From assembly GCA_030614005.1 (NCBI GenBank), contig JAUWKS010000073.1, positions 1 to 14,794 on the forward strand: a stretch of 14,794 nucleotides of DNA, given 5' to 3'. Below, in pieces: positions 1 to 14,794 of this stretch. A model generated the notes under the pieces. That model made no database searches. It was not told the origin of the DNA and saw nothing but the letters and a program-made list of their open reading frames with translations. The DNA comes from Candidatus Heimdallarchaeota archaeon. Its GTDB lineage: Archaea > Asgardarchaeota > Heimdallarchaeia > JABLTI01. Position 1 is the stretch's first letter, and each line of letters starts with the position of its first letter. The translations under genes were made by a program, and so were the position numbers.

Positions 1-3000
1 ATACTTACATTACCCCCATCCAAACCAAGAGTTAGGACCGATTTAGTTTGGTCTGATCTTCTACCTAAAGAAGCAGAAGGACTTGGAATAGTTCTTGAGT
101 CAATAGTGCAAAGTGCTCACCCCTATGAGCATCAAGCAGAAGCAATACAGCATTTGCTGAATTCAACAACCACCAATAACGGGTTAATCATTAATGGAGG
201 AACATATTCAGGGAAATCGCTCTCGTTTAGTGTTCCTGGAATAACTAAAATATTAACAGGTGAAACTGATTTTTTTGTAGTATTCTATCCATCAAAGCAG
301 CTTCTACTGGATCAATTTGACCGGATGAAAGAATTAGTTGTAAAATTAGAAGAGCAAAGTGGGAAACGATTAACCGTTAAGATGTATAGTGGTGATATTA
401 GTAGAGCAACAGGTTCAACAGTTAGTAAGCATGCACAGAAAAAAGAGCTATATGAAACAGAGCAACATCCACCAAACATCCTTTTAGCAACATTCGATAA
501 ATTCTGGTACCAGATAATGAGCGGAAAAACAAATCCATTACTCGATAAAATAACTAGTAGCCAGTATATGGTTTTTGATGAGATACATGCCTTTGAAGGT
601 TTTGCAGCAGCAATCATTAAAGGATTTACTCAGATACACAAGAAAAAGAATCCCAAATGTCAAGTTGTCCTATCCTCTGCAACGATTGATGATGTTGTGG
701 ATTTTAGGGATGATTTCTTACAAGGTGCGGGAATTATTACTTGCCCTCCTGTGCGTGGAGAACATGAATTCCTTGGAATAACAAAAGAACATACTGTACC
801 ATTTCTTGCCGATCTTTGGCATGAACTAGACTCTTTACCAGGAAAATTCTGCCTAGTATTTATGGACTCTAAAGAAGAGATTGAACTACTAGCAGAACGA
901 CTGTGTGCAAAGCTTAGGAAAAAGCACCCATTCTTTGAAGAAATAACTATAGCAATTATTCATGCAGACTTGCCATATCCTCAACGAAAAAAGATACTTG
1001 ATGAGATAAAGAAGGGAACAAGGAACAGAATCAAGATACTCATTTCCTCCTCTGTTTTAGAGCTAGGAGTGAATATACCAAATGTCCAAACAGTAGTAAA
1101 TATTGGGATACCAATTACTCAAAAGGATGGTATCGTTCAAAGATTCGCTCGTAACCGTTCTAACCCAAGTGAAAGACGTGTGAATGTCTGTATTTTCGAT
1201 TTGGTTAACTCTCGAGACAACTTCTATTGGCATCATCTTGAAATATTACGTACTATACTTGAAACAAATGCTTGCAATCCAATACTCTATCCAAGACAAA
1301 ATCCCAAGATTTTGGCTGGATTACTTGTCCTTCATTTACGATATGGTGTCAATGATTATCAAGAAATATTCTCTTTCTTTTTGAAAGAAGGAAGGAAAGT
1401 TTATGAAATAGCTCGGCAGCAACTCACTAAACTCATTAGTTTCAACGTGCTAAAAAAAGTGCCTGGTAAAATCTTGTTTACCAGTCAGGGAGAAAATAGA
1501 CTTCAACAATTAAAAAACAATAATGTTCTCGTTCCTTTATCTATTAGAGCTATTAGTACTAATTGGTCTATCCAATTGAAGAAAGGTATTGATTCCATTC
1601 GGTTAACAGATCAAACAACCTCATTAGGTAAAATTTCCACAAAAGATGTGCTCAAGAAAGGTTTGTCTGGCAATCTTATTATTAGGAATAGACAGAAATA
1701 TCTAGTTACTGATGTCGATAAGTGGCAAAAAACTATCCTAGTAAAAAAATATTTTATAAATGATTCGGATGATACTTTCTCTTTACCACCAATAAATCAA
1801 TTATATGACCCAACTATTTCCGTTGATGTATATCCGAAGAAAATTTTAGGAACAAGATTAGTGACCATCAATTTTGGACAGATCACTGCCAACCAAAAGC
1901 CAAAGATAATTGTAAATGCCAATCCAAATTCAATGCTACTTAATGATAAAGGCAGGGATGAGAACAACAACTATTTTTATCAGGAATTGACACAGCAAGA
2001 ATCCAATGAATTTGCAATAGCCGAAAACTCAGAAGGCATCATCATAAGCATGGAAACTGAATTATTAAAACCAAAAAACCTTACGACCAAGAAAATGCTA
2101 AAATTATTTGGTGAAATTCTGCTCATTGAAGCTGAGATGGTTCTTTCTATACCTGCTTCTGAATTTGAACTCGTGTATAATGCCAATCAATTGGCAATTT
2201 ATGATAAAGGAGAACCAAATGGAAACGCTGAATATTTGTTTTTACACTTACAAGAAGTAGCCCAACAAGCATTACTTAGATTAGAGCAATGCTCCTGTGA
2301 GCGAGGGTGTGAATATTGTTATGGAGAGATTCTGGGTCTTTTACCTGATGGTTCCAAAGAATATCTAAAACAATTGGTAAAAGATTTGGTAAATATTTCA
2401 AATTTAGAGTCGCTTGATAATACAGAAGCAATTGAACCCAATTTGCAAATCGATTCCCAAGAGAACAATATAATTGCTTTTTCCGATATTCATCTTACAC
2501 ATGAGTTATGCTTTCAAGAAGAATTTTTTGAAGCTATTAGTGAATTCAGCAAACAAGCGGTTATTATTATTATAAATGGTGACTTGCTGGACAAAGTGTC
2601 TGAGGAAAGTAAGGACGCATTCAATCAATTAAAAACAAAAGCAATACAAGAGGGATATTGGTCAAAATTAGTGTTTGTTCGAAGTTCTTCTATTCATGAT
2701 GGTAATCTCGAACAATTCTCTGGCTTTCTCCATCAAGACTATGTTTATATTGAAACTAAAACAGATCAAGTGCTTTTTGTCCATGGAAACAGAATTGGTG
2801 TTGATCCTAAAATTGTTGCAGAAAGAAAGGCTAAAGGAGCAACTATAGATGCAAAATGGAAACTAATTAGTAAAGAAGGTAGAAAGCGGTTGCCAAAAAT
2901 TACCAAAGAAACTCACCTTGTGGTAGGTCATTTGCATGAACGTTTCTTTGACGAAGAGAACAGGGTTTATGGTTTAGGTCATTGGTTAAAGAAAGGAAAT

Positions 3001-3099
3001 GCTTATCATCAAAAAAACTTGATGATAATTGATTCAACAAAGGATACAGATGAAATAAAGCTTTATCAGTTTGATAAAGCGAATTCATTCCTCTGTTAG
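1..3099 (+). CDS. YprA/MrfA-like DEAD/DEAH-box SF2 helicase with DUF1998-type C4 Zn motif, fused to a C-terminal calcineurin-like metallophosphoesterase (5' partial)
   Basis: The frame is open from base 1 (ILTLPPSKPRVRTDLVWSDLL...), so the GTG at 106 is probably not the true start. Motifs: Q-motif YEHQAEAI; Walker A GGTYSGKS (196-219); Ia YPSKQLLLDQ; II DEIH (577-588); III SAT; V LELGVNI; degenerate VI QRFARNR. These are followed by a winged-helix-like segment and CSCERGCEYC (2290-2319). From about 2467 come the phosphoesterase motifs SDIH, GDLLD, SIHD, VHG and GHLH. Confidence 0.85.
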   Translation: MLTLPPSKPRVRTDLVWSDLLPKEAEGLGIVLESIVQSAHPYEHQAEAIQHLLNSTTTNNGLIINGGTYSGKSLSFSVPGITKILTGETDFFVVFYPSKQLLLDQFDRMKELVVKLEEQSGKRLTVKMYSGDISRATGSTVSKHAQKKELYETEQHPPNILLATFDKFWYQIMSGKTNPLLDKITSSQYMVFDEIHAFEGFAAAIIKGFTQIHKKKNPKCQVVLSSATIDDVVDFRDDFLQGAGIITCPPVRGEHEFLGITKEHTVPFLADLWHELDSLPGKFCLVFMDSKEEIELLAERLCAKLRKKHPFFEEITIAIIHADLPYPQRKKILDEIKKGTRNRIKILISSSVLELGVNIPNVQTVVNIGIPITQKDGIVQRFARNRSNPSERRVNVCIFDLVNSRDNFYWHHLEILRTILETNACNPILYPRQNPKILAGLLVLHLRYGVNDYQEIFSFFLKEGRKVYEIARQQLTKLISFNVLKKVPGKILFTSQGENRLQQLKNNNVLVPLSIRAISTNWSIQLKKGIDSIRLTDQTTSLGKISTKDVLKKGLSGNLIIRNRQKYLVTDVDKWQKTILVKKYFINDSDDTFSLPPINQLYDPTISVDVYPKKILGTRLVTINFGQITANQKPKIIVNANPNSMLLNDKGRDENNNYFYQELTQQESNEFAIAENSEGIIISMETELLKPKNLTTKKMLKLFGEILLIEAEMVLSIPASEFELVYNANQLAIYDKGEPNGNAEYLFLHLQEVAQQALLRLEQCSCERGCEYCYGEILGLLPDGSKEYLKQLVKDLVNISNLESLDNTEAIEPNLQIDSQENNIIAFSDIHLTHELCFQEEFFEAISEFSKQAVIIIINGDLLDKVSEESKDAFNQLKTKAIQEGYWSKLVFVRSSSIHDGNLEQFSGFLHQDYVYIETKTDQVLFVHGNRIGVDPKIVAERKAKGATIDAKWKLISKEGRKRLPKITKETHLVVGHLHERFFDEENRVYGLGHWLKKGNAYHQKNLMIIDSTKDTDEIKLYQFDKANSFLC

Positions 3100-4536
3100 T
3101 TCCTCGTAGATGCCTTTGAATTGTTCTAAAGCAAATTCGAGATTTTCAACAATTTCATGAGCAATAACTTCTGGGTCCGGGAGATTTTCGAGGTCTTCCA
3201 TACTCTCATCTCTCAACCAGAAAATATCAAGGTTAACTTTGTCTCGCTGCATTAATTCATCATAAGTAAATGCTTTGAATCTCTCGGATTCTTTCCTCTT
3301 GTGTCTATTTTCAGAATTATAACATTCGATAAATTCCTCCAAATCAGTATATCGTAGAGGATTTTCCTTGAGTGTAAAATGTTTATTGGTACGTAAATCA
3401 TAAATCCAGAGTTTATCAGTCCATGGTTTATCGCTTGCAGGTTTCTTATCAAAAAAGAGAACATTAGCCTTTACACCCTGAGCATAGAAAATTCCTGTTG
3501 GTAATCTAAGCAATGTATGAACATCACATGTTGTAAGAAGTTTTTTTCTAATAGTTTCACCTGCGCCACCTTCAAAAAGAACATTATCAGGTACAACAAT
3601 AGCAGTTTTTCCATGTATTTTAAGGATTGTTTTCACATGTTGCAGGAAATTTAGTTGTTTGTTAGAGGTTGTTGCCCAAAAATCTTCTCGTTCATAAATT
3701 AACGATGATTTAGCTGCTTTTCCTTCAGAATTGGTGATTGTAATACTACTTTTTTTCCCAAAAGGAGGATTTGTTAATACATAGTCATAACGAATTTTTG
3801 GATCCGAGAGTAGTGAATCTTTACAATTAATAGGGCTCTCTTCACCACCAATACCATGAAGGTACAGATTCATAACACACAACCTAACAACATTATCTAC
3901 TATATCTGTTCCTTTGAAAGTTCTATATCGCAAGAATTCTTTTTGGTCTTTATCAAGAGAATACTTTTTGATAAATTCATGAGCTGCGAGAAAGAATCCA
4001 CCAGTTCCACAAGCAGGGTCACAAATTGTTTTCATAGGTTCAGGTTTCACAACAGTAACCATTGCTTTGATAAGTGGTCTTGGGGTGAAATATTGACCCG
4101 CACCGCTCTTAGTATCTTCTGCATTCTTTTGGAGTAATCCTTCATAGATTTCTCCTTTTATATCAATATCTAGACCCATCCAAATTTCTTCATCAATAAG
4201 TGAGAGTAATCTTTTTAATTTCGCTGGATCCTGAATTCTATTCTGCGATTTTCTGAAAATAACTCCAAGAGATCCTTCGCTTTTTCCTAAATTGAACAGT
4301 ACATTTCGATAATGATTCTCAAGTTCTGTGCCATCTTTTGAGATTAAACTCTGCCAGTTGAAATCTTCTGGAATAATTGATGTTATCTTTAGTATTCTTT
4401 CTTGTTCATCAGCCATTTTCAGAAATAATAAGTAAGTAAGCTGTTCTACATAATCGCCATAACTTACACCATCATCCCGTAATACATTACAATAATTCCA
4501 TAATTTTTGTACTATCGTTGCTGAATCTTTATTCAA
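3085..4536 (-). CDS. hsdM: Type I restriction-modification N6-adenine methyltransferase subunit M
   Basis: N-terminal KLWNYCNVLRDDG..YGDYVEQLTYLLFLKM, GQYFTPR, SAM-binding DPACGTGGF and catalytic NPPF. TTG start overlaps the hsdS stop by 8 bp. Confidence 0.96.
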   Translation of the reverse strand: MNKDSATIVQKLWNYCNVLRDDGVSYGDYVEQLTYLLFLKMADEQERILKITSIIPEDFNWQSLISKDGTELENHYRNVLFNLGKSEGSLGVIFRKSQNRIQDPAKLKRLLSLIDEEIWMGLDIDIKGEIYEGLLQKNAEDTKSGAGQYFTPRPLIKAMVTVVKPEPMKTICDPACGTGGFFLAAHEFIKKYSLDKDQKEFLRYRTFKGTDIVDNVVRLCVMNLYLHGIGGEESPINCKDSLLSDPKIRYDYVLTNPPFGKKSSITITNSEGKAAKSSLIYEREDFWATTSNKQLNFLQHVKTILKIHGKTAIVVPDNVLFEGGAGETIRKKLLTTCDVHTLLRLPTGIFYAQGVKANVLFFDKKPASDKPWTDKLWIYDLRTNKHFTLKENPLRYTDLEEFIECYNSENRHKRKESERFKAFTYDELMQRDKVNLDIFWLRDESMEDLENLPDPEVIAHEIVENLEFALEQFKGIYEELTEE

Positions 4537-5986
4537 AATCTTCTAACCTCGCTTGCTTTGTTTTTATATCTGCATTGGCAGAATTTATTTGAACATCTTC
4601 TTTAGATTTGCTTGTTAAACTATTTAATTCCAAATCTTTATCAAATTGAGAAATCAATTTTCCTTCAAAAGCTTTCTTTAAGATGCCTTGTTTCAATATT
4701 CTATTTTTTAGCAAAATGTTTTCAATATATTTTTCTATTTTCTCAATATTTGTTAATCGCCATTCGATTTTTTCTGCTATTTCCTTTTGTTCAATTTTTG
4801 TTGGTATAGGTACGAATTGATTTAACACATCAATATATCTAACTGCCGGATAACTAGAACCACGTTGAATTCTTGTTAATGAGTTAACAAATGAGTTTGT
4901 TAAAGTATAATAAAAAAGAAATTTAGGTACGATTATTTTTTTATTTGGTCTTAAAATACAAAATCCGGTTGAAGCAATTTGTTTATTATTTTGTTCCTTT
5001 ACAAATGCGATATTTCTTAGATAAGTTCTAACTGTCGAAAAAAGAACATCGTCAGTTTTTATTTGTTGTCTAGCTCTTGATGGAGCATTTTTCCCCAATA
5101 TTTTTTTTGGTTTAGTAATTTCATATTTATTAATTGATGAAATATCAATGTATGTGAAATATTCATTGGGTTTTTCAGAAGGTTTTACTTTTTTGACTTC
5201 TTCAGAAATATTACAAATTTGCATCATAGTCCATCCCAAATTTTGAGAAATAATACTCAATCGTCTATTTGAACTAGAATTAGACTTGTTAGTTTTTGAA
5301 ATAAGTATTTGTTCAGAATCAATTTCAACTAATTTCTTTAAATTGGTTGTTCTCCATTTTTCTGTTAATTTTCCTTCAAAAGCAGCCTTCAAAACAGCTT
5401 GACGATACCTAGCAAGTTGTAATTTAGTATGTTTGAGGGATTTAACTCCAGCATCTAGCTTGGTGAATAATTTCTCTAATTTAATCACTATCATTTCTTG
5501 TTGTTGTATTGGAGGTAATAAAATCTCAATTTTTCTTAAATCTTCTAAGTGTAGATTCTTAATAACTCCTCCTTTCACTGTTTGTTGAATATCTATACTT
5601 TTAATGTAATTATCTAATGAGTACATCAAGAAAAAAGGATTTACTTTATTTTTATCGGGCTTTAGTAAAGCAACACTAACGAATAAATCGAATTCTTGTT
5701 TTGTTTTAATAACAGCTGTTCTTCCAATTGTACCACTTTTAGTAATTAAAACATCATGATATTCTGGATTACACTTTTTTGTTAATTTTATATGTGCTTC
5801 TTTTGAAATATATTTGATATTTTTAAAGTCAATTTTTTTATCTCTGATGTTTTTTACTGAGATAAATGCAATGCCCTTTTCTGTGTATTTTGGTGTATGA
5901 TGCGCACCATCAGTAATTTTTATACATATTTCGTTTAAGTTTACCTTATGCCAATTGTTTTGTAAAAAAAAATTCTCCTTATTCAT
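4529..5986 (-). CDS. hsdS: Type I restriction-modification specificity subunit S (two TRDs)
   Basis: Layout is TRD1, helical conserved region (LPPIQQQ...AVLKAAFEGKL), TRD2, second conserved region (PIPTKIEQ...ILKKAFEGKL). It lies between hsdR and hsdM, with an ATGA overlap with hsdR. Confidence 0.95.
   Translation of the reverse strand: MNKENFFLQNNWHKVNLNEICIKITDGAHHTPKYTEKGIAFISVKNIRDKKIDFKNIKYISKEAHIKLTKKCNPEYHDVLITKSGTIGRTAVIKTKQEFDLFVSVALLKPDKNKVNPFFLMYSLDNYIKSIDIQQTVKGGVIKNLHLEDLRKIEILLPPIQQQEMIVIKLEKLFTKLDAGVKSLKHTKLQLARYRQAVLKAAFEGKLTEKWRTTNLKKLVEIDSEQILISKTNKSNSSSNRRLSIISQNLGWTMMQICNISEEVKKVKPSEKPNEYFTYIDISSINKYEITKPKKILGKNAPSRARQQIKTDDVLFSTVRTYLRNIAFVKEQNNKQIASTGFCILRPNKKIIVPKFLFYYTLTNSFVNSLTRIQRGSSYPAVRYIDVLNQFVPIPTKIEQKEIAEKIEWRLTNIEKIEKYIENILLKNRILKQGILKKAFEGKLISQFDKDLELNSLTSKSKEDVQINSANADIKTKQARLEDFE
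4656..5383. repeat. Pair of exact 17-bp direct repeats AATTTTCCTTCAAAAGC (4656-4672 and 5367-5383) inside hsdS
   Basis: Read directly from the sequence. The copies are 711 bp apart (237 codons, in frame) and both encode AFEGKL in the two conserved regions of HsdS. Confidence 0.85.
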
Positions 5987-8736
5987 GATATAAGCACCTC
6001 ATTAATCTCCACTAAAATTGCATTAAGCTTGTTATTGAAAAGTCTATTAGCTTTTACTTGCCCTCCTTTTTCAAAGAATGGTGCATATTGAAAATCAGAT
6101 TCTTCAATACTTAATGATGATATTATATGATTTTTAATTAAAACCAACCATTCCTTTTGTTCATCAGTAAATTTACGATTACTTTCTTCCTGCTCTTCCA
6201 ACCAGCTATTAAATCTGTGATTTATTTCTTCTGAAAATGGCTCTAATAATTCAATATCACCAAGCTCAAATCTAATGAGAGAAATGATATTGGTTAGTAA
6301 TTTTTGTGTTCCAACTCGTTTTACTTTAGCTTGATGTAATTGCTCATAGGCTTGCCAAAGTTGTTCTGTAGATAGACGATAGGGAGGTTTTTCAATTGCT
6401 TCTGCAAGTTCTTTGATTTGCTTAAATGTTAATTTTCTTTGACCATATGGCTTACTGTAGAAAATTTGCAGTGCTGTCAATTCATTCTTATTATCAACAA
6501 TAAATTTCTTAAAAGTATCAATTATTGTTTTCGCTCTTTCTCTTGCTTTATCATCATGACCAGCAAATAATATCTCATCTTTACTTATCTTATCAATTGT
6601 TTGTTCGTTTCTTGTTTTTATTTCAATTATCTTATTCCTTACTTTTGGTTCATAAAAAATCGCACAAGCAGCTTCTTTTTGTTTCTTCTCTATGTTCTCT
6701 TTCTGTTTTTTAGTAGGTTTATCTGTGTTGTATTCTTCCTTTGCTCTCTCTTCAATTATATCAGGATCAATTGAATCCAGCAGTCCATTTATTATCTCTT
6801 TTAATGGTTTATCTTTTGTAACAGCTAGTAATTCTTTCTTTGACTTTTCATCTATTTGATTATTCAACCTTGATAATCGACTGGCTAATGAGCTGATGGT
6901 ATCATTTTCTCTATTACCATAAACTATTGAATTCATTAATTTATCAAATTTAATTGATCTTTTTCGTTCTAATGGTCTAGAATCCGTTTTATCACTTTCA
7001 CATACACCAACCGCATCAACAATGACAAAATGAGTTTTCTCTTTAGCATCCATGGTTACTTGTTGGAAATCTGTTGACGAGATTGTTCTTGTTCCTCTTC
7101 CTTTCATTTGCTCAAAATAAACTCTTGATTTCACATCTCTCATAAACAGCAAGCATTCAAGTGGTTTAATATCTGTTCCAGTTGAGATCATATCTACTGT
7201 TACTACTATTCGTAGTGGATAGGAATTCCTAAAACTAGCAATCAAATCCTCTGGTTTTTCTCCAGATTTATAGGTTATTTTCTTACAAAATTCATTTCCT
7301 TTTCCAAATTCCTCTCGTATTATTCCTACGATATCTTCCGCATGTGAATCATCTTTAGCAAAAACTAGTGTTTTTGGTACATCTTTTCTTCCGGGAAAGA
7401 TCTCTGTGAATAGCTTCTCTTTAAATGTTTTAATTACCAATCTAATTTGGTCAACAGCAACAACACTTCTGTCTAGTTCTCTAGCAGTATATTTCAGTTC
7501 TTCGTCTAATATCTCCCATCTCTTTTTTCTTGTCAATTTGTCTCGTTTATCTATAAATTCCCCTGCTTCTACTTTGCTTCCCTTTTCAGTTATTTTTGTT
7601 TTTATTCTATAAACATCGTAATCAACATTTACTCCATCAGCTACAGCTCTATCATGAGCGTATTCCGTTACTAAATTTTGATTGAAAAATCCTAAAGTAT
7701 GTTTTGCAGGAGTAGCTGTTAAGCCTATAATAAACGAATCAAAATATTCCAAAACTTGACGCCATAAATTGTAGATAGATCTATGACATTCATCAGTCAC
7801 GATAAAATCAAACGTTTCTATTGGTATTTCTGGATTATAAACTACTTCTCTTGAAGCTTTCTCTCTTAATGGATCTATTTGGAACAATGACTTTTCTTCT
7901 AATTCATCCTCATATTCTTTTTCTCCCCTAAGCATAGAATATAATCTTTGTATTGTAGTTATACAAATTTTACTTACAGAATCAATTGTATTTGTTGTTA
8001 AATGCTCTACATTATATAATTCCGTAAACTTCCGTCCATCATCTGGTGTGATATATTGTTGAAATTCTTTATTGGTTTGTCTTCCAAGATTACTCCTATC
8101 AACTAAGAATAATATCCTTTTAGCTTTTGCGAACTTTATTAGACGATAGCCAAATGAAACTGCAGTATATGTTTTACCGCTTCCAGTAGCCATTTGAATT
8201 AGTGACCGTGGTCTACCATCATGAAATGATTTTTCTAAATTTGTAATTGCCTGAATTTGACAATCTCTTAAACCTTTAACATCTAAGGGAGGTAATTCTT
8301 GTAATTTTCCACGCAGACTTTTTTCTTGCTTTGACCACTCCAGCAATGTTTTTGGTTGATGAAAAGTAAAAACTCTTCTTGACCGAGGATTTGGATCCCT
8401 TAGATCGGCAAAAAAAGTTACTATTCCTGTTGTTTCATAAGTAAACAGTGGTTTTGCTTTCATATACTCAAATTTTTCTTCAAAAGCTGAAAGATATTTC
8501 TTCGATTGATCATACACACCACTTAGTGTCGTTCCTTTCGGTTTAGCTTCAACCACACCTAGTGGATTACCATTTACTAATAATAAATAATCTGCAAATC
8601 CTATGCCTAATGGAAATTCCCTAACAGCAACCCCCAATGCTGCTTTCGGATTAAAGTCCTTGTATTCTTGTAATAACCAACCTGCTTCTTCAAGTTGCTT
8701 ATCTATTTCCCTTCTTGCCTTTTCCTCTGGTTTCAT
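5983..8736 (-). CDS. hsdR: Type I restriction endonuclease/translocase subunit R (EcoAI/EcoEI-like architecture)
   Basis: N-terminal PD-(D/E)xK nuclease (ADYLL...VEAK, QSKKY = QxxxY), Walker A MATGSGKT, DECH, TATP, motif VI EQMKGRGTR, and a helical C-terminal region resembling EcoEI_R_C. Confidence 0.96.
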   Translation of the reverse strand: MKPEEKARREIDKQLEEAGWLLQEYKDFNPKAALGVAVREFPLGIGFADYLLLVNGNPLGVVEAKPKGTTLSGVYDQSKKYLSAFEEKFEYMKAKPLFTYETTGIVTFFADLRDPNPRSRRVFTFHQPKTLLEWSKQEKSLRGKLQELPPLDVKGLRDCQIQAITNLEKSFHDGRPRSLIQMATGSGKTYTAVSFGYRLIKFAKAKRILFLVDRSNLGRQTNKEFQQYITPDDGRKFTELYNVEHLTTNTIDSVSKICITTIQRLYSMLRGEKEYEDELEEKSLFQIDPLREKASREVVYNPEIPIETFDFIVTDECHRSIYNLWRQVLEYFDSFIIGLTATPAKHTLGFFNQNLVTEYAHDRAVADGVNVDYDVYRIKTKITEKGSKVEAGEFIDKRDKLTRKKRWEILDEELKYTARELDRSVVAVDQIRLVIKTFKEKLFTEIFPGRKDVPKTLVFAKDDSHAEDIVGIIREEFGKGNEFCKKITYKSGEKPEDLIASFRNSYPLRIVVTVDMISTGTDIKPLECLLFMRDVKSRVYFEQMKGRGTRTISSTDFQQVTMDAKEKTHFVIVDAVGVCESDKTDSRPLERKRSIKFDKLMNSIVYGNRENDTISSLASRLSRLNNQIDEKSKKELLAVTKDKPLKEIINGLLDSIDPDIIEERAKEEYNTDKPTKKQKENIEKKQKEAACAIFYEPKVRNKIIEIKTRNEQTIDKISKDEILFAGHDDKARERAKTIIDTFKKFIVDNKNELTALQIFYSKPYGQRKLTFKQIKELAEAIEKPPYRLSTEQLWQAYEQLHQAKVKRVGTQKLLTNIISLIRFELGDIELLEPFSEEINHRFNSWLEEQEESNRKFTDEQKEWLVLIKNHIISSLSIEESDFQYAPFFEKGGQVKANRLFNNKLNAILVEINEVLIS

Positions 8737-9222: not shown

Positions 9223-11136
9223 ATGCTAATTAGTCAAGAAACATTGGATGAAATTAAATCGAAGATTCTAGCGAAAACACCTCCATCTGCAGATATATCT
9301 GAAATTGAATTTGAAGGACCAGAAGTGGCAGTTTATTCTCGTAATCCTCAGATACTGGTTGATAATGGTGAACTTGTTAAAAATTTAGCTAAGGAATTAC
9401 GTAAACGTATTGTTATTCGTTCCGATCCATCTGTTCGTATGAAGCAAGATAAAGCTAAAACAATTGTTGAAAAACTCGTCCCTAAGGAAGCAGAAATAAC
9501 CTCGATTCAATTTGATTCCAATATTGGCGAAATTCTTATTGAAGCTGTTAAACCTGGCCTTGTTATTGGAAAAAGTGGTGAAACTTTACGAAAAATAACC
9601 TCGGAAACGTTTTGGAGACCTAGCGTTTCAAGAACTCCACCTTTAGACTCACGTATTGTTAAAACTGTGAGAAATATTCTATTTACTGAAAGTGAGGCGC
9701 GCAAAAAAATATTGCGAAAAATAGGTCGAAGAATTCACCGAAAACAAATGTTTGATACGAATTGGGTTCGAATTACATCATTAGGTGGGTATCGAGAAGT
9801 AGGGAGAAGTGCAACTTTACTAAGAACTCCCGAAAGTAATATCTTAATTGATTGTGGAGTGAATGTCGGTCGTAATTCATCGAAAGAAATGTTTCCAAGA
9901 TTAGATGCTTTGGAATTTTCGATTGAGAATTTGGATGCTGTTGTTATAACACATGCTCATCTTGATCACAGTGGCTTTTTACCTTACCTTTTCAAATATG
10001 GTTATGAAGGACCTGTTTATACGACCAAAGCAACAAGCAATTTAATGACATTACTTCAAATTGATTATTTGGATGTAGCTAAAAAAGAAGGAAAACTTCT
10101 TCCATACATACAAAAAGATGTTAAAAAAACTGTTCTTCACACTATTCCATTAAATTATGGAGAAGTCACTGATATCTCACCTGATGTCCGTTTAACACTT
10201 CATAATGCAGGGCACATTTTGGGATCAGCAATAGTGCACTTACATATTGGTAATGGACTTTACAATATGGCAGTTGCTCAAGATTTTAAATATCGACAAA
10301 CTAATCTTTTAGATTCTGCAGTTTCAAAATTCCCACGACTGGAAGCGCTCTTTATGGAATCTACTTATGGTAATCCGCAGGATATAATGCCTTCCAATAA
10401 AGAAGCTGAAACTCATATTAGAAATGTTATAAGTGCTACCTTAGAAAGAGGTGGAAAAGTACTCATCCCAGTTTTAGCAGTAGGGCGTGCACAAGAATTA
10501 CAAATTGTGATAGAATCCTTGATTGCAAAGAAATTAGTACCTGCCGTTCCAGTTTATTTAGATGGTATGATATCAGAAGCTTCAGCTGTGACAACTTGTC
10601 ATCCTGAATATCTTAGCCGGAAACTTCGTGAGAAAATATTCCACATTGGTCAAAATCCATTCTTAGCTGAATGTTTCCATAGAGTGCAAGGAAGAGATGA
10701 AAGAAAACAAATCATAGGTGGAGATCCTTGTATTATTCTTGCAACTAGTGGTATGTTAACTGGTGGTCCTTCTGTTGAGTATTTTGAGAAACTATCTGGA
10801 GATTCAAAGAATTCCATTCTTTTCGTTTCTTATCAGGGTGAAGGTTCACTTGGTAGAAAAATACAGAAAAATGTTAATGAAATAACCCTTATGGAAAAAG
10901 GACATGCGCGAATGTTGCGAATTGATATGGAAGTTCATACTATCATTGGTTTCTCAGGTCATAGTGATCGAAAAGAGCTTCTAAATTACGCTCGTAAAGT
11001 GAGTCCCCGACCGGAAAAAATCTTCCTGATACATGGTGAGAAAAGCAAATGTATCTCTTTAGCATCAACATTGCATAAAATGCTCAAAGTTGAAACAAAA
11101 GCTCCAGAAGTACTTGAAACAATTCGATTATGTTAA
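9223..11136 (+). CDS. aCPSF1: Archaeal CPSF1 / FttA beta-CASP ribonuclease (KH domains + metallo-beta-lactamase + beta-CASP), transcription termination factor
   Basis: 637 aa. N-terminal KH region (EFEGPE...RIVIRSDP; KPGLVIGKSG), GGYREVGRS, MBL motif HAHLDH, HNAGHILGS, MESTYG, PVLAVGRAQE, GFSGHSD, HGE, and the typical C-terminal AP..LETIRL. Confidence 0.97.
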   Translation: MLISQETLDEIKSKILAKTPPSADISEIEFEGPEVAVYSRNPQILVDNGELVKNLAKELRKRIVIRSDPSVRMKQDKAKTIVEKLVPKEAEITSIQFDSNIGEILIEAVKPGLVIGKSGETLRKITSETFWRPSVSRTPPLDSRIVKTVRNILFTESEARKKILRKIGRRIHRKQMFDTNWVRITSLGGYREVGRSATLLRTPESNILIDCGVNVGRNSSKEMFPRLDALEFSIENLDAVVITHAHLDHSGFLPYLFKYGYEGPVYTTKATSNLMTLLQIDYLDVAKKEGKLLPYIQKDVKKTVLHTIPLNYGEVTDISPDVRLTLHNAGHILGSAIVHLHIGNGLYNMAVAQDFKYRQTNLLDSAVSKFPRLEALFMESTYGNPQDIMPSNKEAETHIRNVISATLERGGKVLIPVLAVGRAQELQIVIESLIAKKLVPAVPVYLDGMISEASAVTTCHPEYLSRKLREKIFHIGQNPFLAECFHRVQGRDERKQIIGGDPCIILATSGMLTGGPSVEYFEKLSGDSKNSILFVSYQGEGSLGRKIQKNVNEITLMEKGHARMLRIDMEVHTIIGFSGHSDRKELLNYARKVSPRPEKIFLIHGEKSKCISLASTLHKMLKVETKAPEVLETIRLC

Positions 11137-11140
11137 GAGC

Positions 11141-11161
11141 TTTCTTTCCTTTTTTCTTTTT
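11141..11161 (+). terminator. U-rich archaeal terminator tract directly after the aCPSF1 stop
   Basis: TTTCTTTCCTTTTTTCTTTTT, an uninterrupted 21-nt pyrimidine run beginning 5 nt after the TAA. Confidence 0.6.
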
Positions 11162-11645
11162 ATAATTTCATTTTCCAGATATTGTCATTGACATAATGGA
11201 TGCTTTTTATGGCTTTTCCTTTTGTCATTTCTTTAATTTCTTTACCATCAAAAAGTAATTCTCCAATAGCAAGTGCTTTGCCAAAGTTCTCATCGATAAT
11301 CATAATTATTGTTCCTGCTTTCAAATCATCTGCTATTTGTGTTATACCAGGAGCCATTACATCAGCTCCATTTGTAACGTATGGTACTGCACCCATGTCA
11401 ACAGTTACAGAAGGCATTTTTACTAATCCTTCATTTAGCACACGAAGGCTAGGAAATATTCTCTCTCCAATTTTGAAGGCTAATATCTTTTTATTTTCAG
11501 CGTAAAATTCGCCAATATCTGCTACTACTAATTCTGCTCCCTTCTCAAAAAGAATTTCTGCTTCTTCTCCTATAACTTCTTGTAATTTTTCTTTGAGCTC
11601 CTTGAAATCCTTTTTTCTCATTGCATGTCTACGAGTAATTTCCAT
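11160..11645 (-). CDS. PUA-domain RNA-binding protein (DUF1947 + PUA; MCT-1/Tma20-like archaeal family)
   Basis: 161 aa. N-terminal RRH.MRKKD.KEL, then IFPSLR, VTVDMGAVPYVTNGADVMAPGI, ALAIG and GKAIKSIHYVND, characteristic of the PUA domain of this family. Confidence 0.9.
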   Translation of the reverse strand: MEITRRHAMRKKDFKELKEKLQEVIGEEAEILFEKGAELVVADIGEFYAENKKILAFKIGERIFPSLRVLNEGLVKMPSVTVDMGAVPYVTNGADVMAPGITQIADDLKAGTIIMIIDENFGKALAIGELLFDGKEIKEMTKGKAIKSIHYVNDNIWKMKL

Positions 11646-11810: not shown

Positions 11811-11870
11811 CTAATAGCTTTCATTGAAGAACAGAGTGTTCTAATCTTATATTCCTTGGAGAATAGTAAA

Positions 11871-12137
11871 ATGAGCAAACAGCAACCAGAAAGACGTTTG
11901 AGCAAAGATAGACCTATGGATCTTCTTTCAATGTCACTTGGAGGAATTGTCTTAGTGAAATTGAAAGGCGGACGCCAATTGAGAGGTAAACTGAAGAATT
12001 ACGATCCACATCTTAATTTAACTTTAGAAGATGCTGAGGAAATCCTAGATGATGGAAACAATTCCTTAGGAACAATCATCTTACGTGGTGACAATGTTAT
12101 AATCATTAGTCCACCTCCTGCAGTAGATAAGAAATAG
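11871..12137 (+). CDS. Archaeal Sm-like (Lsm/SmAP1-type) RNA-binding protein
   Basis: RPMDLL, VLVKLK, G.L..YD.HLNL.L (Sm1 motif) and IILRGDNVIIISP (Sm2 motif). ATG 11871 is preferred over TTG 11856 because GGAG lies 9 nt upstream of it. 88 aa. Confidence 0.93.
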   Translation: MSKQQPERRLSKDRPMDLLSMSLGGIVLVKLKGGRQLRGKLKNYDPHLNLTLEDAEEILDDGNNSLGTIILRGDNVIIISPPPAVDKK

Positions 12138-12410: not shown

Positions 12411-12443
12411 AAAAAAAGAAAGTAATAGGGAAATTCCTTCCCT
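12411..12443 (-). terminator. Hairpin plus U-tract terminator of the longin-GTPase-7TM operon
   Basis: The minus strand reads AGGGAA-GGAAT-TTCCCT (perfect 6-bp stem, 5-nt loop) then ATTACTTTCTTTTTTT, starting 20 nt after the 7TM stop codon. Confidence 0.55.
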
Positions 12444-12463: not shown

Positions 12464-13423
12464 CTATGGATCAGCTACTTCCATGACAGTTTGTATTTCT
12501 GTCTTAGAAGTCTCAGAAGAGATAAATGAATATTTCTGAGTTGTCTTCTTCTTATCTAAGGACTTTACTATCCAAGCTTTTCCTCTTATGGCTTTCTTTA
12601 ACCAGTCTGGAAGAATCCAGCCAAGATAAGCAAAAACTACTACAGCTATGTTGAAAAGAATTCTAATGATATTAACGACAACTACGAGAGTACCAACATT
12701 AGTTATTGCTTCTTGAGTGAAGAGAATAGCAACTGCTCGTTCGAGAAAGATAAAAATAACCGAAATTAAAATAAGAGTAACTCCTGTTCTTGCTACTTTT
12801 TCCTTCAAATTTCTGCGAATGACAATTAACCTGTAGATAATTCTCACAAAGATAATCAGAATGATTGGCACAAAGATTACTAATGCAGCAAGCAAATGAG
12901 GAATAAACTGATATGTTCCAGTTCCTGCATAAGCAACATACTGTGTAAATCCTTCCTGATCAAGCCCCCAACCATAGATTCCTTCTGAAACACTAGGAAT
13001 ATATTCAGCTATTAATTCTGAAATCATCATTCCACCTAAAATTCCTAAGAGAAGTGTTAATGCTATTGAAGTAAATGATTTTGTTATATCACTATCTCGT
13101 AATATATGTCGGTTTGCAAAGTAATAGAAGAAAATGAAGCTAGCTAGATTGAGTATAAGGGAAATTATCTGTACGTATCCGTGAGCTAAAACAGAATTAT
13201 CACCAAATATCATTGATGCGTTAATCCAAGATCCCGCTTGAGTTAAAATATCTGCTAGAATAAATGTTCCGAAAAACAATAGCAAAAGACCTGTTCCAAC
13301 TGTTCTTTTTTTGAAGTAATTCCTAACGAGAATACCAAAAAAAACAATGAAAAAGGCACTACCAACAGCACCAAAAATAAGGTAAAACCAACCAGCATTT
13401 GTTACGCTTCCAAAAGCAACCAT
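12464..13423 (-). CDS. Seven-transmembrane protein of unknown function (receptor-like, predicted N-out/C-in)
   Basis: Likely start is ATG 13423 (MVAFGSV..., 319 aa), 1 nt after the GTPase stop and preceded by GGAGG. There are seven hydrophobic segments by eye, with basic clusters after TM1, TM5 and TM7 and a long loop between TM4 and TM5. Confidence 0.8.
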   Translation of the reverse strand: MVAFGSVTNAGWFYLIFGAVGSAFFIVFFGILVRNYFKKRTVGTGLLLLFFGTFILADILTQAGSWINASMIFGDNSVLAHGYVQIISLILNLASFIFFYYFANRHILRDSDITKSFTSIALTLLLGILGGMMISELIAEYIPSVSEGIYGWGLDQEGFTQYVAYAGTGTYQFIPHLLAALVIFVPIILIIFVRIIYRLIVIRRNLKEKVARTGVTLILISVIFIFLERAVAILFTQEAITNVGTLVVVVNIIRILFNIAVVVFAYLGWILPDWLKKAIRGKAWIVKSLDKKKTTQKYSFISSETSKTEIQTVMEVADP

Positions 13424-13424
13424 T

Positions 13425-13961
13425 TTATCGTTCCTCCATTTTTTCTTTAAACCAACTGAACGCTTCGATAATCCCTTCACCCGTTAAGGCAGAAGTCTCG
13501 AAGACCGCCCATTCTATTTCGTATTCAGTTTCTATTAAACCAAATCTCTTCACTAAATCAGCTTGACTAATTCGATCAGGTAAATCTTTTTTATTCAATA
13601 GAAGAAGTACGGGGATTTTTCCACCAATTTGATTAGCTAAGATGTCGTTAAAAATTCCTTTGGTTAAATCAAATCGCATATGATCAACACTATCAATAAC
13701 ATAAATAAGCGCATCTGTTTTTTCGTTTATCTCTTGCCAAATAGGCCGAAAATCTTCTTGCCCACCCATATCAAAGATATTTATTTGAAGTTTTGGAAAG
13801 TTAATAACTTCTCGATTGACTCCCATGGTTGGTGTTGTTTCTTTGAATTCTCCATGAATCAGGTAATTGATTATTGCTGTTTTCCCAGCTTTATCAAGAC
13901 CACAGATAGTCACAGTCACCGGTTTTGCTTTCTTTCTAAATAAGTTAAGTAAAAATGACAT
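13425..13961 (-). CDS. Arf/Arl-like small GTPase
   Basis: G1 GLDKAGKT, switch I TTPTMGVN, G3 FDMGGQ followed by FRPIW, YVIDSVD, G4 NKKD, G5 SALTGEG, and N-terminal amphipathic MSFLLNLFRKK. These match Arf-family signatures. SD GAGGT at 13969-13973. Confidence 0.93.
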   Translation of the reverse strand: MSFLLNLFRKKAKPVTVTICGLDKAGKTAIINYLIHGEFKETTPTMGVNREVINFPKLQINIFDMGGQEDFRPIWQEINEKTDALIYVIDSVDHMRFDLTKGIFNDILANQIGGKIPVLLLLNKKDLPDRISQADLVKRFGLIETEYEIEWAVFETSALTGEGIIEAFSWFKEKMEER

Positions 13962-13979
13962 TTGTATTACCTCTCACTT

Positions 13980-14480
13980 TTATTTCCAGAGATCATCTTG
14001 CATTGATACAGCAAATTCTTTGCCTGGATCTTCTTCACTCTTTTTTTCACTAGTAAAATCAAATTCTAATGTTACAACAGAGCTAATTTTTATTTTTACC
14101 TTTTCTTTACTTAATCCTTCATATAAATGAGGCAATATTTTAGTAATCATCTCGATATTGACCATTTGATTCTTTTCTAGTTCTGTAACTGTAAATGAGA
14201 AAAATCTTCGTATGTCTTCTCGCTTGTAATCAGATCCTTCAAAAACCGCTACTAAGGTCGCGATATTGTTTCTTTCTGCTCCTGGCACGCTAAATATATA
14301 GCTTTCAAAAACGCATTTATCTGCTGTACTTGATGAGAAGTCTCCTTCCTTTGAGCTCATTGGCATGCTTTTCAATACGATTTGATTCAAAGTGCTTTCT
14401 GGAACAACATCAGGATGAGCCTTTACTAATTCTAGACCTTTTTTCCCCATCTGTATTAAACATAAACTTATAGGTTTCAT
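13980..14480 (-). CDS. Hypothetical protein, putative longin/uDENN-like fold
   Basis: 166-aa ORF with SD TGAGGT (14487-14492). The by-eye secondary-structure order beta-beta-alpha-beta-beta-beta-alpha-alpha and the N-terminal hydrophobic strand-G-x7-P pattern fit longin domains. The fold call is inference. Confidence 0.6.
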   Translation of the reverse strand: MKPISLCLIQMGKKGLELVKAHPDVVPESTLNQIVLKSMPMSSKEGDFSSSTADKCVFESYIFSVPGAERNNIATLVAVFEGSDYKREDIRRFFSFTVTELEKNQMVNIEMITKILPHLYEGLSKEKVKIKISSVVTLEFDFTSEKKSEEDPGKEFAVSMQDDLWK

Positions 14481-14794
14481 TTTTTGACCTCATCAATTTG
14501 TTAATAACAAAACTAAAACTAGTTCTAACTATCAATTAACGTAGTTCTGTTTGTTATTGCTTTTTAAAGTAGTAGTCTATATAAATCTAACAATTTAGGC
14601 AATTACTGTTGCTACTCAATAATAAACAAATATGAATTTAACCAGCATTTTTTACTCTCAAAGTTACATCAAAATAATCTATACTATTGATAGTTTGCCA
14701 ATTTTGACATAAGCTGCTTAATGGTGTTGAAGAAAAATATATATCAGCCTTATATTTTTCAATTATTGAAAACATTCTAATAATCATTATTGAT

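Follow-up and report, generated by a model that had tools for sequence, protein, structure and literature searches.

The right end of a 14,794-bp contig (C18; JAUWKS010000073.1) from a Candidatus Heimdallarchaeota metagenome-assembled genome (MAG) carries three adjoining genes, here called A, B and C, which encode an NPRL2-like longin protein, an Arf-family small GTPase and a seven-transmembrane (7TM) membrane protein. The window analyzed here is this whole contig, and the MAG, an Asgard genome of 3.6 Mb, is 90% complete. We found that the three genes constitute a self-contained, lineage-specific unit of Heimdall-group Asgard archaea, and that they have been duplicated and are diverging together as that unit. 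The reading we favor, at about even odds, is that this cassette encodes a membrane-anchored switch composed of a receptor, a longin and an Arf. The three genes are co-oriented, head to tail:

13980-14480, minus strand: gene A, 166 aa (P0001), NPRL2-like longin protein
13425-13961, minus strand: gene B, 178 aa (P0002), Arf-family small GTPase
12464-13423, minus strand: gene C, 319 aa (P0003), 7TM membrane protein

Conservation and co-diversification of the cassette

Additional modules were collected by searching related genomes with C and a species-level genome collection with A. The linkage on which the original prediction was built holds in other genomes, as 30 distinct modules were recovered (19 A-B-C, eight A-C and three with A alone), with the same gene order and strand throughout. 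The genome that contains the window holds five A-C pairs, three with B between the two genes and two without it, plus one lone divergent A; copies verified in this genome include those on C26 and C74. In all 18 full modules the B-C gap lies between -4 and 8 nt, A and B are separated by a median of 25.5 nt, and locus tags of public MAGs show the same cassette spacing. When the flanks of 23 loci were compared, A, B and C were the sole recurrent families, and no fourth conserved cassette gene was found there. The A-C pair is the constant core, with B present in about two thirds of the copies, and trees of A, B and C recover the same supported clades.

Of 300 genomes of the phylum, those with strong matches to A all belong to two Heimdall-group families, the one to which the window belongs (8 of 10 genomes) and a sister family (about 8 of 28); a single genome has up to nine A-family matches. 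A weaker A subfamily occurs in family f14, which lies outside the window's class (16 of 68 genomes), and the A profile yielded 115 matches among 1.84 billion cluster representatives. The original prediction did not recognize the triplet as a named system, and our literature search likewise found no paper describing an A-B-C cassette.

Gene A resembles the longin domain of NPRL2

Gene A has no Pfam or NCBIfam match, and its identity comes from structure prediction. The AlphaFold2 (AF2) model of A, with 51 homologues, has a predicted local distance difference test (pLDDT) score of 87 and shows a beta-beta-alpha-beta-beta-beta-alpha-alpha order followed by a beta-hairpin and a C-terminal helix. 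Foldseek placed NPRL2 and yeast Npr2 first among PDB structures (E 6.5e-7) and matched human NPRL2 among Swiss-Prot models (E 6.5e-8); the fold matches that follow are NPRL3, a Lokiarchaeal longin, FLCN/FNIP, Lst4, DENND10/11, SMCR8 and C9orf72. Structural comparison by VIA gave Z scores of 13.8-16.6 for NPRL2, with a root-mean-square deviation (rmsd) of 2.6-3.0 A over 139-143 residues (model residues 1-144 against NPRL2 residues 5-161), while the next protein reached Z 12.2 and ordinary longins 8-10. The longin-like character proposed for A is therefore borne out by the AF2 fold and by match lists filled with longins, and the model identifies A as a longin of the class that regulates small GTPases, with NPRL2 the closest by a clear margin. 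Orthology to NPRL2/Npr2 was considered and rejected, as A has no match to the Pfam NPR2 family (PF06218) and its 166 residues correspond to the longin domain alone, with no NPRL2 C-terminal domain; PF06218 matched nothing in 300 Asgard genomes, and the control genomes were silent too.

Residues G12, G15, P23, P40, G46, F63, R70, S134 and W165 are invariant in the A family (51 sequences). G12 and G15 lie in the beta1-beta2 loop and R70 lies just before beta-5, and the strand order of longins would bring this loop and the start of beta-5 to the same edge of the sheet. The R70 column is mostly Arg in distant relatives of A as well. The range of A aligned to NPRL2 residues 5-161 spans Arg78 of NPRL2, and no residue-level alignment of R70 with Arg78 was obtained. 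Longins of the GTPase-activating protein (GAP) type carry a GP motif before beta-2 and an Arg finger before beta-5 (PMC12290439).

A second A-related subfamily, captured in alignment A5, consists of stand-alone longins of ~165 aa with GSNPE before beta-2; these proteins retain the Arg and have a basic C-terminus that closes with K-G-x-F/L. The weaker matches to the A profile in family f14 probably stem from this subfamily. Separately, a protein of 1034 aa (P0159) has eight separate matches to the N-terminal half of the A profile (residues ~11-69) and may be a tandem array of partial longin-like units.

Gene B belongs to a cassette-specific Arf subfamily

The description of B as an Arf-like GTPase was confirmed by its match to the Pfam Arf family PF00025 (E 3.9e-43, 147.3 bits against a cut-off of 22.3) and by matches to Arf/Arl structures in the PDB and to Asgard ArfR (8OUN) at E 1e-31 to 1e-28. 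Motifs G1 to G5 are intact in B and take the Arf-type forms GLDxAGKT, PTxG and DxGGQ, with GLDKAGKT as the P-loop and DMGGQ containing the catalytic Gln68. In 17 of 17 cassette GTPases, the P-loop, the switch-I Thr, DxxGQ with its catalytic Gln, (N/H)KxD and SA are invariant. When the 17 cassette GTPases were compared, the position three residues before the switch-I Thr was found to be Thr in B, not Arg. As no intrinsic Arg is present near switch I, the established mechanism of GTPases implies that efficient hydrolysis by B should need an Arg supplied in trans.

The N-terminal amphipathic helix of B (MSFLLNLFRKK; hydrophobic moment 0.41-0.50), in which MSFLLxLF is nearly invariant, is a putative membrane-binding element of the Arf type. 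With Ser rather than Gly at position 2, B lacks a myristoylation site. In the tree, the GTPases of the cassettes group together (SH-aLRT 99), separate from the other 11 Arf-like genes that this genome encodes, and B belongs to a separate Arf subfamily found only within the cassette. Weak matches were also obtained to the SR-beta family PF09439 (E 1.7e-8) and to the G-alpha family PF00503 (38.7 bits against a cut-off of 48.8, E 8.3e-10), the latter across residues 42-127, from switch I to G4. An assignment of B as a G-alpha was nevertheless ruled out, as it scores below the cut-off and is a single 178-aa domain with no helical insert and no intrinsic Arg.

Gene C encodes a 7TM protein whose cytoplasmic side is conserved

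The AF2 model of C (pLDDT 82) contains seven long helices, a beta-hairpin in the outer loop between transmembrane helices 4 and 5 (TM4-TM5) and an amphipathic helix after TM7. The four odd-numbered, outer segments contain 0 Lys and Arg residues, against 22 in the even (inner) loops and tail, which places the N-terminus outside and the C-terminus inside. Conservation is highest in the cytoplasmic loops and the post-TM7 segment (0.73-0.77), lower in the TM helices (0.41-0.50) and lowest in the outer loops (0.30-0.41), which vary between paralogues. The conserved cytoplasmic motifs are KKRTxGT, RHILRDxD and YxGWxxPDWLKKxIRGKAWI. The original call of a 7TM protein is in agreement with these seven TM helices, their receptor-like layout and the conserved cytoplasmic face.

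No Pfam match, including the 7tm families, was found in 26 members of the C family (E <= 1), NCBIfam likewise yielded nothing usable for C, and a feature search of a protein atlas returned unnamed Asgard clusters only. The ten nearest folds among the matches listed for C in the ESM Atlas all carry HisKA_7TM, fused in these neighbors to kinase, GGDEF, HD or LuxR outputs, and they superpose on C with TM-scores of 0.56-0.66 and an rmsd of 3.5-4.4 A over 219-259 residues. The AFDB rows for C contain similar HisKA_7TM folds plus class C G-protein-coupled receptors (GPCRs); one member of the C family is named HisKA_7TM in UniProt. Foldseek against the PDB retrieved GPCRs alone (E >= 4e-3, TM-score 0.36-0.52), and VIA gave Z 13-16 for all GPCR classes, TMEM87A and a rhodopsin, a level that is common for helical bundles. 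Membership of C in HisKA_7TM (PF16927) was tried and rejected, with an hhalign probability of 0.2% against seven Heimdall-group domains and no profile match. Judged by its predicted model, C represents a 7TM family without known kin, and the fold closest to it is that of prokaryotic 7TM input modules. Homology of C to GPCRs is not supported, given the missing Pfam match, the generic nature of the GPCR structure matches and the closer fit of the HisKA_7TM folds.

HisKA_7TM histidine kinases of ~600 aa were observed in family f3 (4 of 4 genomes) but not in family f1, to which the window belongs (0 of 11 genomes); the C family was found in f1 and f2 and in 0 of 14 f3 genomes (relatives G013, G015, G017 and G019; loci L039-L045). 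These kinases and the C family are apparently distributed in a complementary fashion.

Variant and decaying copies

In the C tree, A-C forms are nested among A-B-C forms, and one decaying copy (L021:4502-4747, equal to L004:2717-2962) retains B as a 73-aa remnant followed by ~300 nt without an open reading frame (ORF); taken together, these observations point to repeated loss of B. In A, residues G46 and P66 are kept in almost every A-B-C copy, with few exceptions that include locus L030, and are replaced in half of the A-C copies. In C, the helix after TM7 (residues ~270-292, with W274 and W284) is kept in almost every A-B-C copy and is altered or cut off in both A-C clades, while the motifs of intracellular loops 1 and 2 (ICL1, ICL2) and the YxGWxxP motif are kept in every copy type. 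The pattern that accompanies B loss comprises two or three independent losses and is thus suggestive, not statistical. From these sequence comparisons it is predicted that B contacts A on its G46/P66 face and C at the helix after TM7, with A docking on the constant cytoplasmic core of C.

Residue R70 of A is kept in eight of eight A-C copies and is lost only in a lone copy and in a decaying one. The lone copy (L037:2996-3556, or G000:C21:16995-17555, minus strand) is a divergent A of 186 aa with Glu at R70 and no adjoining B or C. The decaying copy (L030:4095-5870) is missing ~31 N-terminal residues of A and ~16 of B and has Cys at R70.

A second cluster of Arf and membrane-protein genes was observed on one strand elsewhere in the same genome (G000:C119:1-7000, L038), where two paralogous Arf-like genes (1311-1889 and 4580-5164) flank ORFs of 241, 283 and 297 aa. 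The 283-aa ORF, with some six hydrophobic helices, does not belong to the C family.

Proposed mechanism and alternative explanations

The observed linkage, co-diversification, folds and conservation pattern are consistent with an arrangement in which each contact and activity is predicted. C, resembling prokaryotic 7TM input modules, would act as a sensor or anchor; its outer face varies, and its conserved cytoplasmic face would hold the longin A. A would in turn regulate the nucleotide state of B, most likely as a GAP that gives Arg70 in trans to a GTPase that has Gln68 and lacks an Arg of its own. GTP-bound B would sit on the membrane through its N-terminal amphipathic helix, beside the post-TM7 helix of C. 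A prediction of the complex of A, B, C and GTP, scored for partner A, gave 0.54 versus 0.41 with C replaced and 0.00 with A replaced, values that do not reach the required margin over controls and in which A-B is not separable from A-C.

Several results weigh against this receptor-longin-Arf switch. As R70 is kept in copies without a GTPase gene in cis, its conservation does not depend on a cis-encoded B; its target may be a GTPase from another locus, or it may serve a different function. Eukaryotic GAP longins act as heterodimers of two longin proteins, whereas each cassette has a single longin gene. The GP motif position in the A family is G15-L16, with an invariant Gly followed by Leu, and GP or GSNP is present only in distant relatives of A. 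Searches of the PDB with profiles A1 and A5 gave chance matches only, providing no sequence bridge to solved longins. The label of sensor for C, finally, derives solely from its fold and conservation pattern, with no sequence or profile link to HisKA_7TM.

One alternative is that the cassette serves membrane remodeling or trafficking, in which B would bend or vesiculate the membrane like Arf1, Sar1 or ArvA, C would be a landmark or cargo receptor and A a recruiter or timer. The nearly invariant Arf-type amphipathic helix of B suits such a role, some Asgard Arfs bind membranes in a GTP-dependent manner (PMC11914678), the Arf-like ArvA of haloarchaea is encoded in an operon with two partner genes and drives vesicle formation (PMC10927574), and longins, common in coat and adaptor subunits, are seen as such among the lower fold matches of A. 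We nonetheless regard this explanation as unlikely, as the many paralogues per genome and the variability of the outer loops of C are better suited to a family of sensors than to a single trafficking machine, A is far closer to NPRL2 (Z 14-17) than to adaptor sigma/mu or SNARE longins (8-10), no coat-like gene is linked in the flanks of the 23 loci, and the GTPase is missing from one third of the copies. The role of A could also differ from that of a GAP, with A serving as B's guanine nucleotide exchange factor (GEF) or GTP-state platform in the manner of DENN, TRAPP, Mon1-Ccz1 or the SRX longin of SR-alpha, which binds the Arf-like SR-beta. GEFs and platforms make up the majority of longin regulators (PMC3747258), the structures matching A include the longins of DENND10/11 and DENND1, B weakly matches SR-beta (E 1.7e-8), and retention of R70 without a cis GTPase is not required of a purely catalytic finger. 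Against these points stand the GAP-complex longins NPRL2, Npr2, NPRL3 and FLCN/FNIP, which top every structural search, the invariant Arg before beta-5 next to the G12/G15 loop, which is the arrangement of GAP longins (PMC12290439), and the catalytic Gln of B unaccompanied by an intrinsic Arg, so that a GEF or platform role appears quite unlikely.

Two further explanations concern C. As a transporter or channel whose activity or abundance is regulated by A and B (a permease-regulator unit), C would need no recognizable sensor or enzymatic domain, and it has none; 7TM folds are also found in transporters and rhodopsin pumps, and a rhodopsin and TMEM87A are among its VIA matches. This explanation is highly improbable, however, as the nearest folds of C, among the matches listed, are all signaling input modules, no transporter family matched it, and conservation is moderate in the TM helices (0.41-0.50) and peaks on the cytoplasmic face, unlike a conserved transport path. 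The cassette might instead be a direct forerunner of the GPCR/G-alpha pair, with C a true GPCR homologue and a GEF acting on B, and B a pre-G-alpha. The GPCR-like topology of C with its helix after TM7, the Z scores of 13-16 for all GPCR classes, the class C GPCRs in the AFDB rows, the weak G-alpha profile match of B from switch I to G4 (E 8.3e-10) and the degradation of the post-TM7 helix upon loss of B could all be read in this way. However, B falls under the curated G-alpha cut-off and lacks both the helical insert domain and an intrinsic Arg, GPCRs match C no better than helical bundles in general would and HisKA_7TM modules fit better, the constant partner of C is the longin and not the GTPase, and strong matches are confined to two Heimdall-group families, with none in the other families sampled. 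Descent from or to GPCR/G-alpha is accordingly not supported and is the least supported reading, with a chance that we consider slight. The most ambitious form of the receptor-longin-Arf switch, a working receptor-G-protein system in which a ligand-gated C controls the longin GAP and the Arf through its cytoplasmic face and post-TM7 helix and which shares ancestry with LYCHOS-GATOR1-Rag or with GPCR-G-alpha, is also very unlikely.

Comparison with known systems

The cassette falls within a known class of operons, in which a membrane sensor is combined with a small GTPase and a regulator of the longin or roadblock type. By analogy, it can be likened to LYCHOS with GATOR1-Rag, to CSW-Arf1 and to actinobacterial conservons, and it is a member of none of them. 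GATOR1 (NPRL2-NPRL3-DEPDC5) acts on RagA, with NPRL2 as its GAP subunit. The likeness to GATOR1-Rag lies in A, which best fits the NPRL2 longin over its whole length, including the extra hairpin, and in which the invariant Arg precedes beta-5. With LYCHOS/GPR155, a GPCR-like lysosomal protein that binds GATOR1 (PMC11525196), the parallel extends to the coupling of a multi-pass membrane protein, its bundle GPCR-like, to a small GTPase and a longin GAP, the GAP role being a predicted one in the cassette. Unlike GATOR1, the cassette has no NPRL3 or DEPDC5 partner, and A has neither the NPRL2 C-terminal domain nor a Pfam NPR2 match; unlike Rag, its GTPase is of the Arf type with no roadblock domain, and there is no detectable sequence similarity to the GATOR1 system.

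The CSW complex (C9orf72-SMCR8-WDR41) is a longin-domain GAP for Arf1, and the cassette also pairs a longin with a GTPase of the Arf family; the structural matches to A include SMCR8 and C9orf72, although these are weaker (Z about 9 versus 14-17 for NPRL2). With the Heimdallarchaeia longins described as having a GP motif plus an Arg finger (PMC12290439), the A family has in common a conserved beta1-beta2 Gly and a conserved Arg, while GP itself occurs in distant relatives. In contrast to CSW and the GP longins, A has G-L rather than G-P, and the cassette has one longin gene and no heterodimer.

Conservons are operons in which a sensor kinase is encoded together with a GAP of the roadblock type, a GEF and a Ras-like GTPase (PMC13621833, PMC13343842). 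They (CvnA sensor kinase, CvnB roadblock/MglB, CvnC and CvnD Ras-like GTPase) have been likened to G-protein-coupled systems in the same two papers, which cite Komatsu 2006. The resemblance is that of a prokaryotic operon joining a membrane sensor, a regulator of the roadblock/longin superfamily and a small GTPase, and it is one of analogy, not membership. Membership was rejected, as C has no kinase domain, A is a longin and not a roadblock protein, B is an Arf and not MglA-like, and no CvnC-like gene is present; the host lineage, moreover, is archaeal.

The individual parts have relatives of their own. Bacterial HisKA_7TM modules, which share seven helices with C, are the membrane input of histidine kinases and of GGDEF, HD and LuxR proteins, whereas C is a stand-alone protein with no fused output domain. 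The matches of B to eukaryotic Arf/Arl and to Asgard ArfR/AArf (8OUN, 8OUM; PMC11914678) have E-values of 1e-31 to 1e-25, and B shares with these proteins all G motifs, Arf-type switch regions and the N-terminal amphipathic helix, but it falls into the separate cassette-only subfamily. Conserved Asgard operons reported by Liu et al. are the ESCRT and LAMTOR1-Rab-DENN neighborhoods only (10.1101/2020.10.19.343400). The latter, with a LAMTOR1-like protein, a Rab-like GTPase and DENN, also links a protein of the roadblock/longin superfamily, a small GTPase and a regulator, but it draws on other GTPase and regulator families, has no membrane protein and is Asgard-wide, while the cassette occurs in two families. 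The same authors reported Asgard longins that resemble NPRL2, some of them fused to two-component domains (10.1101/2020.10.19.343400), and a 2026 preprint reported GPCR-like structural clusters in Asgard archaea, class C GPCR-like ones among them, without gene context (10.64898/2026.10.28.762692).

Gene layout and genomic surroundings

The cassette genes are closely spaced, with 18 nt between A and B (A stop TAA at 13980-13982, B start ATG at 13961) and 1 nt between B and C (B stop TAA at 13425-13427, C start ATG at 13423), and 314 nt of contig remain upstream of A. For C, the longest ORF opens at GTG 13480, within B; the start was taken as ATG 13423 because this is consistent with the family alignment. 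Shine-Dalgarno (SD)-like motifs precede A (TGAGGT, 6 nt before the ATG), B (GAGGT, 7 nt before the ATG) and C. All three genes are real, having homologues with E-values down to about 1e-100 and lower, and the data sets listed for the cassette locus are DNA metagenomes from marine sediment and cold seeps, with no RNA data set among them. The remaining signals are:

13433-13437, minus strand: SD-like GGAGG for C, 9 nt before the C ATG, within the 3' end of B
12411-12443, minus strand: hairpin and T-rich tract with T7, candidate terminator, 21 nt past the C stop
14578-14585, minus strand: TTTATATA, TATA-box-like octamer, candidate promoter element, ~100 nt upstream of the A ATG

The co-oriented triplet, both gaps and the three SD motifs given in the original prediction were all found at these positions. 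Its shared downstream hairpin and U-tract stood in part. A 7-bp hairpin is present at 12443-12427 and is followed by the T-rich tract that includes T7, but the hairpin was rejected as a meaningful terminator stem, as its stability does not exceed that of shuffled sequence (z -0.3); only the T-run therefore counts as a terminator candidate, and it is plausible as an archaeal terminator. The TATA-like octamer of the TTTATATA type has 2 matches in the window versus 6.2 expected by chance, so that its position alone is suggestive.

The other genes of the contig are unrelated to the cassette. A 5'-truncated helicase of >1030 aa at 1-3099 (plus strand) is MrfA-like, with DEAD, Helicase_C and MrfA Zn-binding domains and a C-terminal ~250 aa with no assigned domain. 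It is abutted by a complete type I restriction-modification system, HsdM, HsdS and HsdR, at 3085-8736 (minus strand), and the two may form a defense island. Just downstream of the cassette, three RNA-processing genes are clustered, for FttA/aCPSF1 (9223-11136), a PUA-domain protein (11160-11645, minus strand) and an LSm protein (11856-12137), the last of which is convergent with the cassette.

Significance

The regulators of Asgard Arfs are described as still to be established (PMC11914678), and whether ArfR or Rag are partners of the Heimdallarchaeia longins with an Arg finger has been posed as a question (PMC12290439); gene neighborhoods are not a topic of the papers on Asgard Arfs. In Lokiarchaeon MK-D1, Tran et al. 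found that GTPase genes are generally not in operons with longin genes (PMC10933270), which makes partners hard to match. Asgard archaea have many Arf-like GTPases and many longin proteins, and the cassette, narrow in distribution and richly paralogous, gives a matched triplet of longin, Arf and membrane protein with each copy. It thereby offers Asgard Arf switches their first concrete candidate native partners, and ~20 natural paralogous sets make native Asgard Arf regulators directly testable. If C does control the switch, there would be receptor-coupled small-GTPase signaling in the closest archaeal relatives of eukaryotes, and it would have been built from a prokaryotic-type input module and eukaryote-type GTPase parts.

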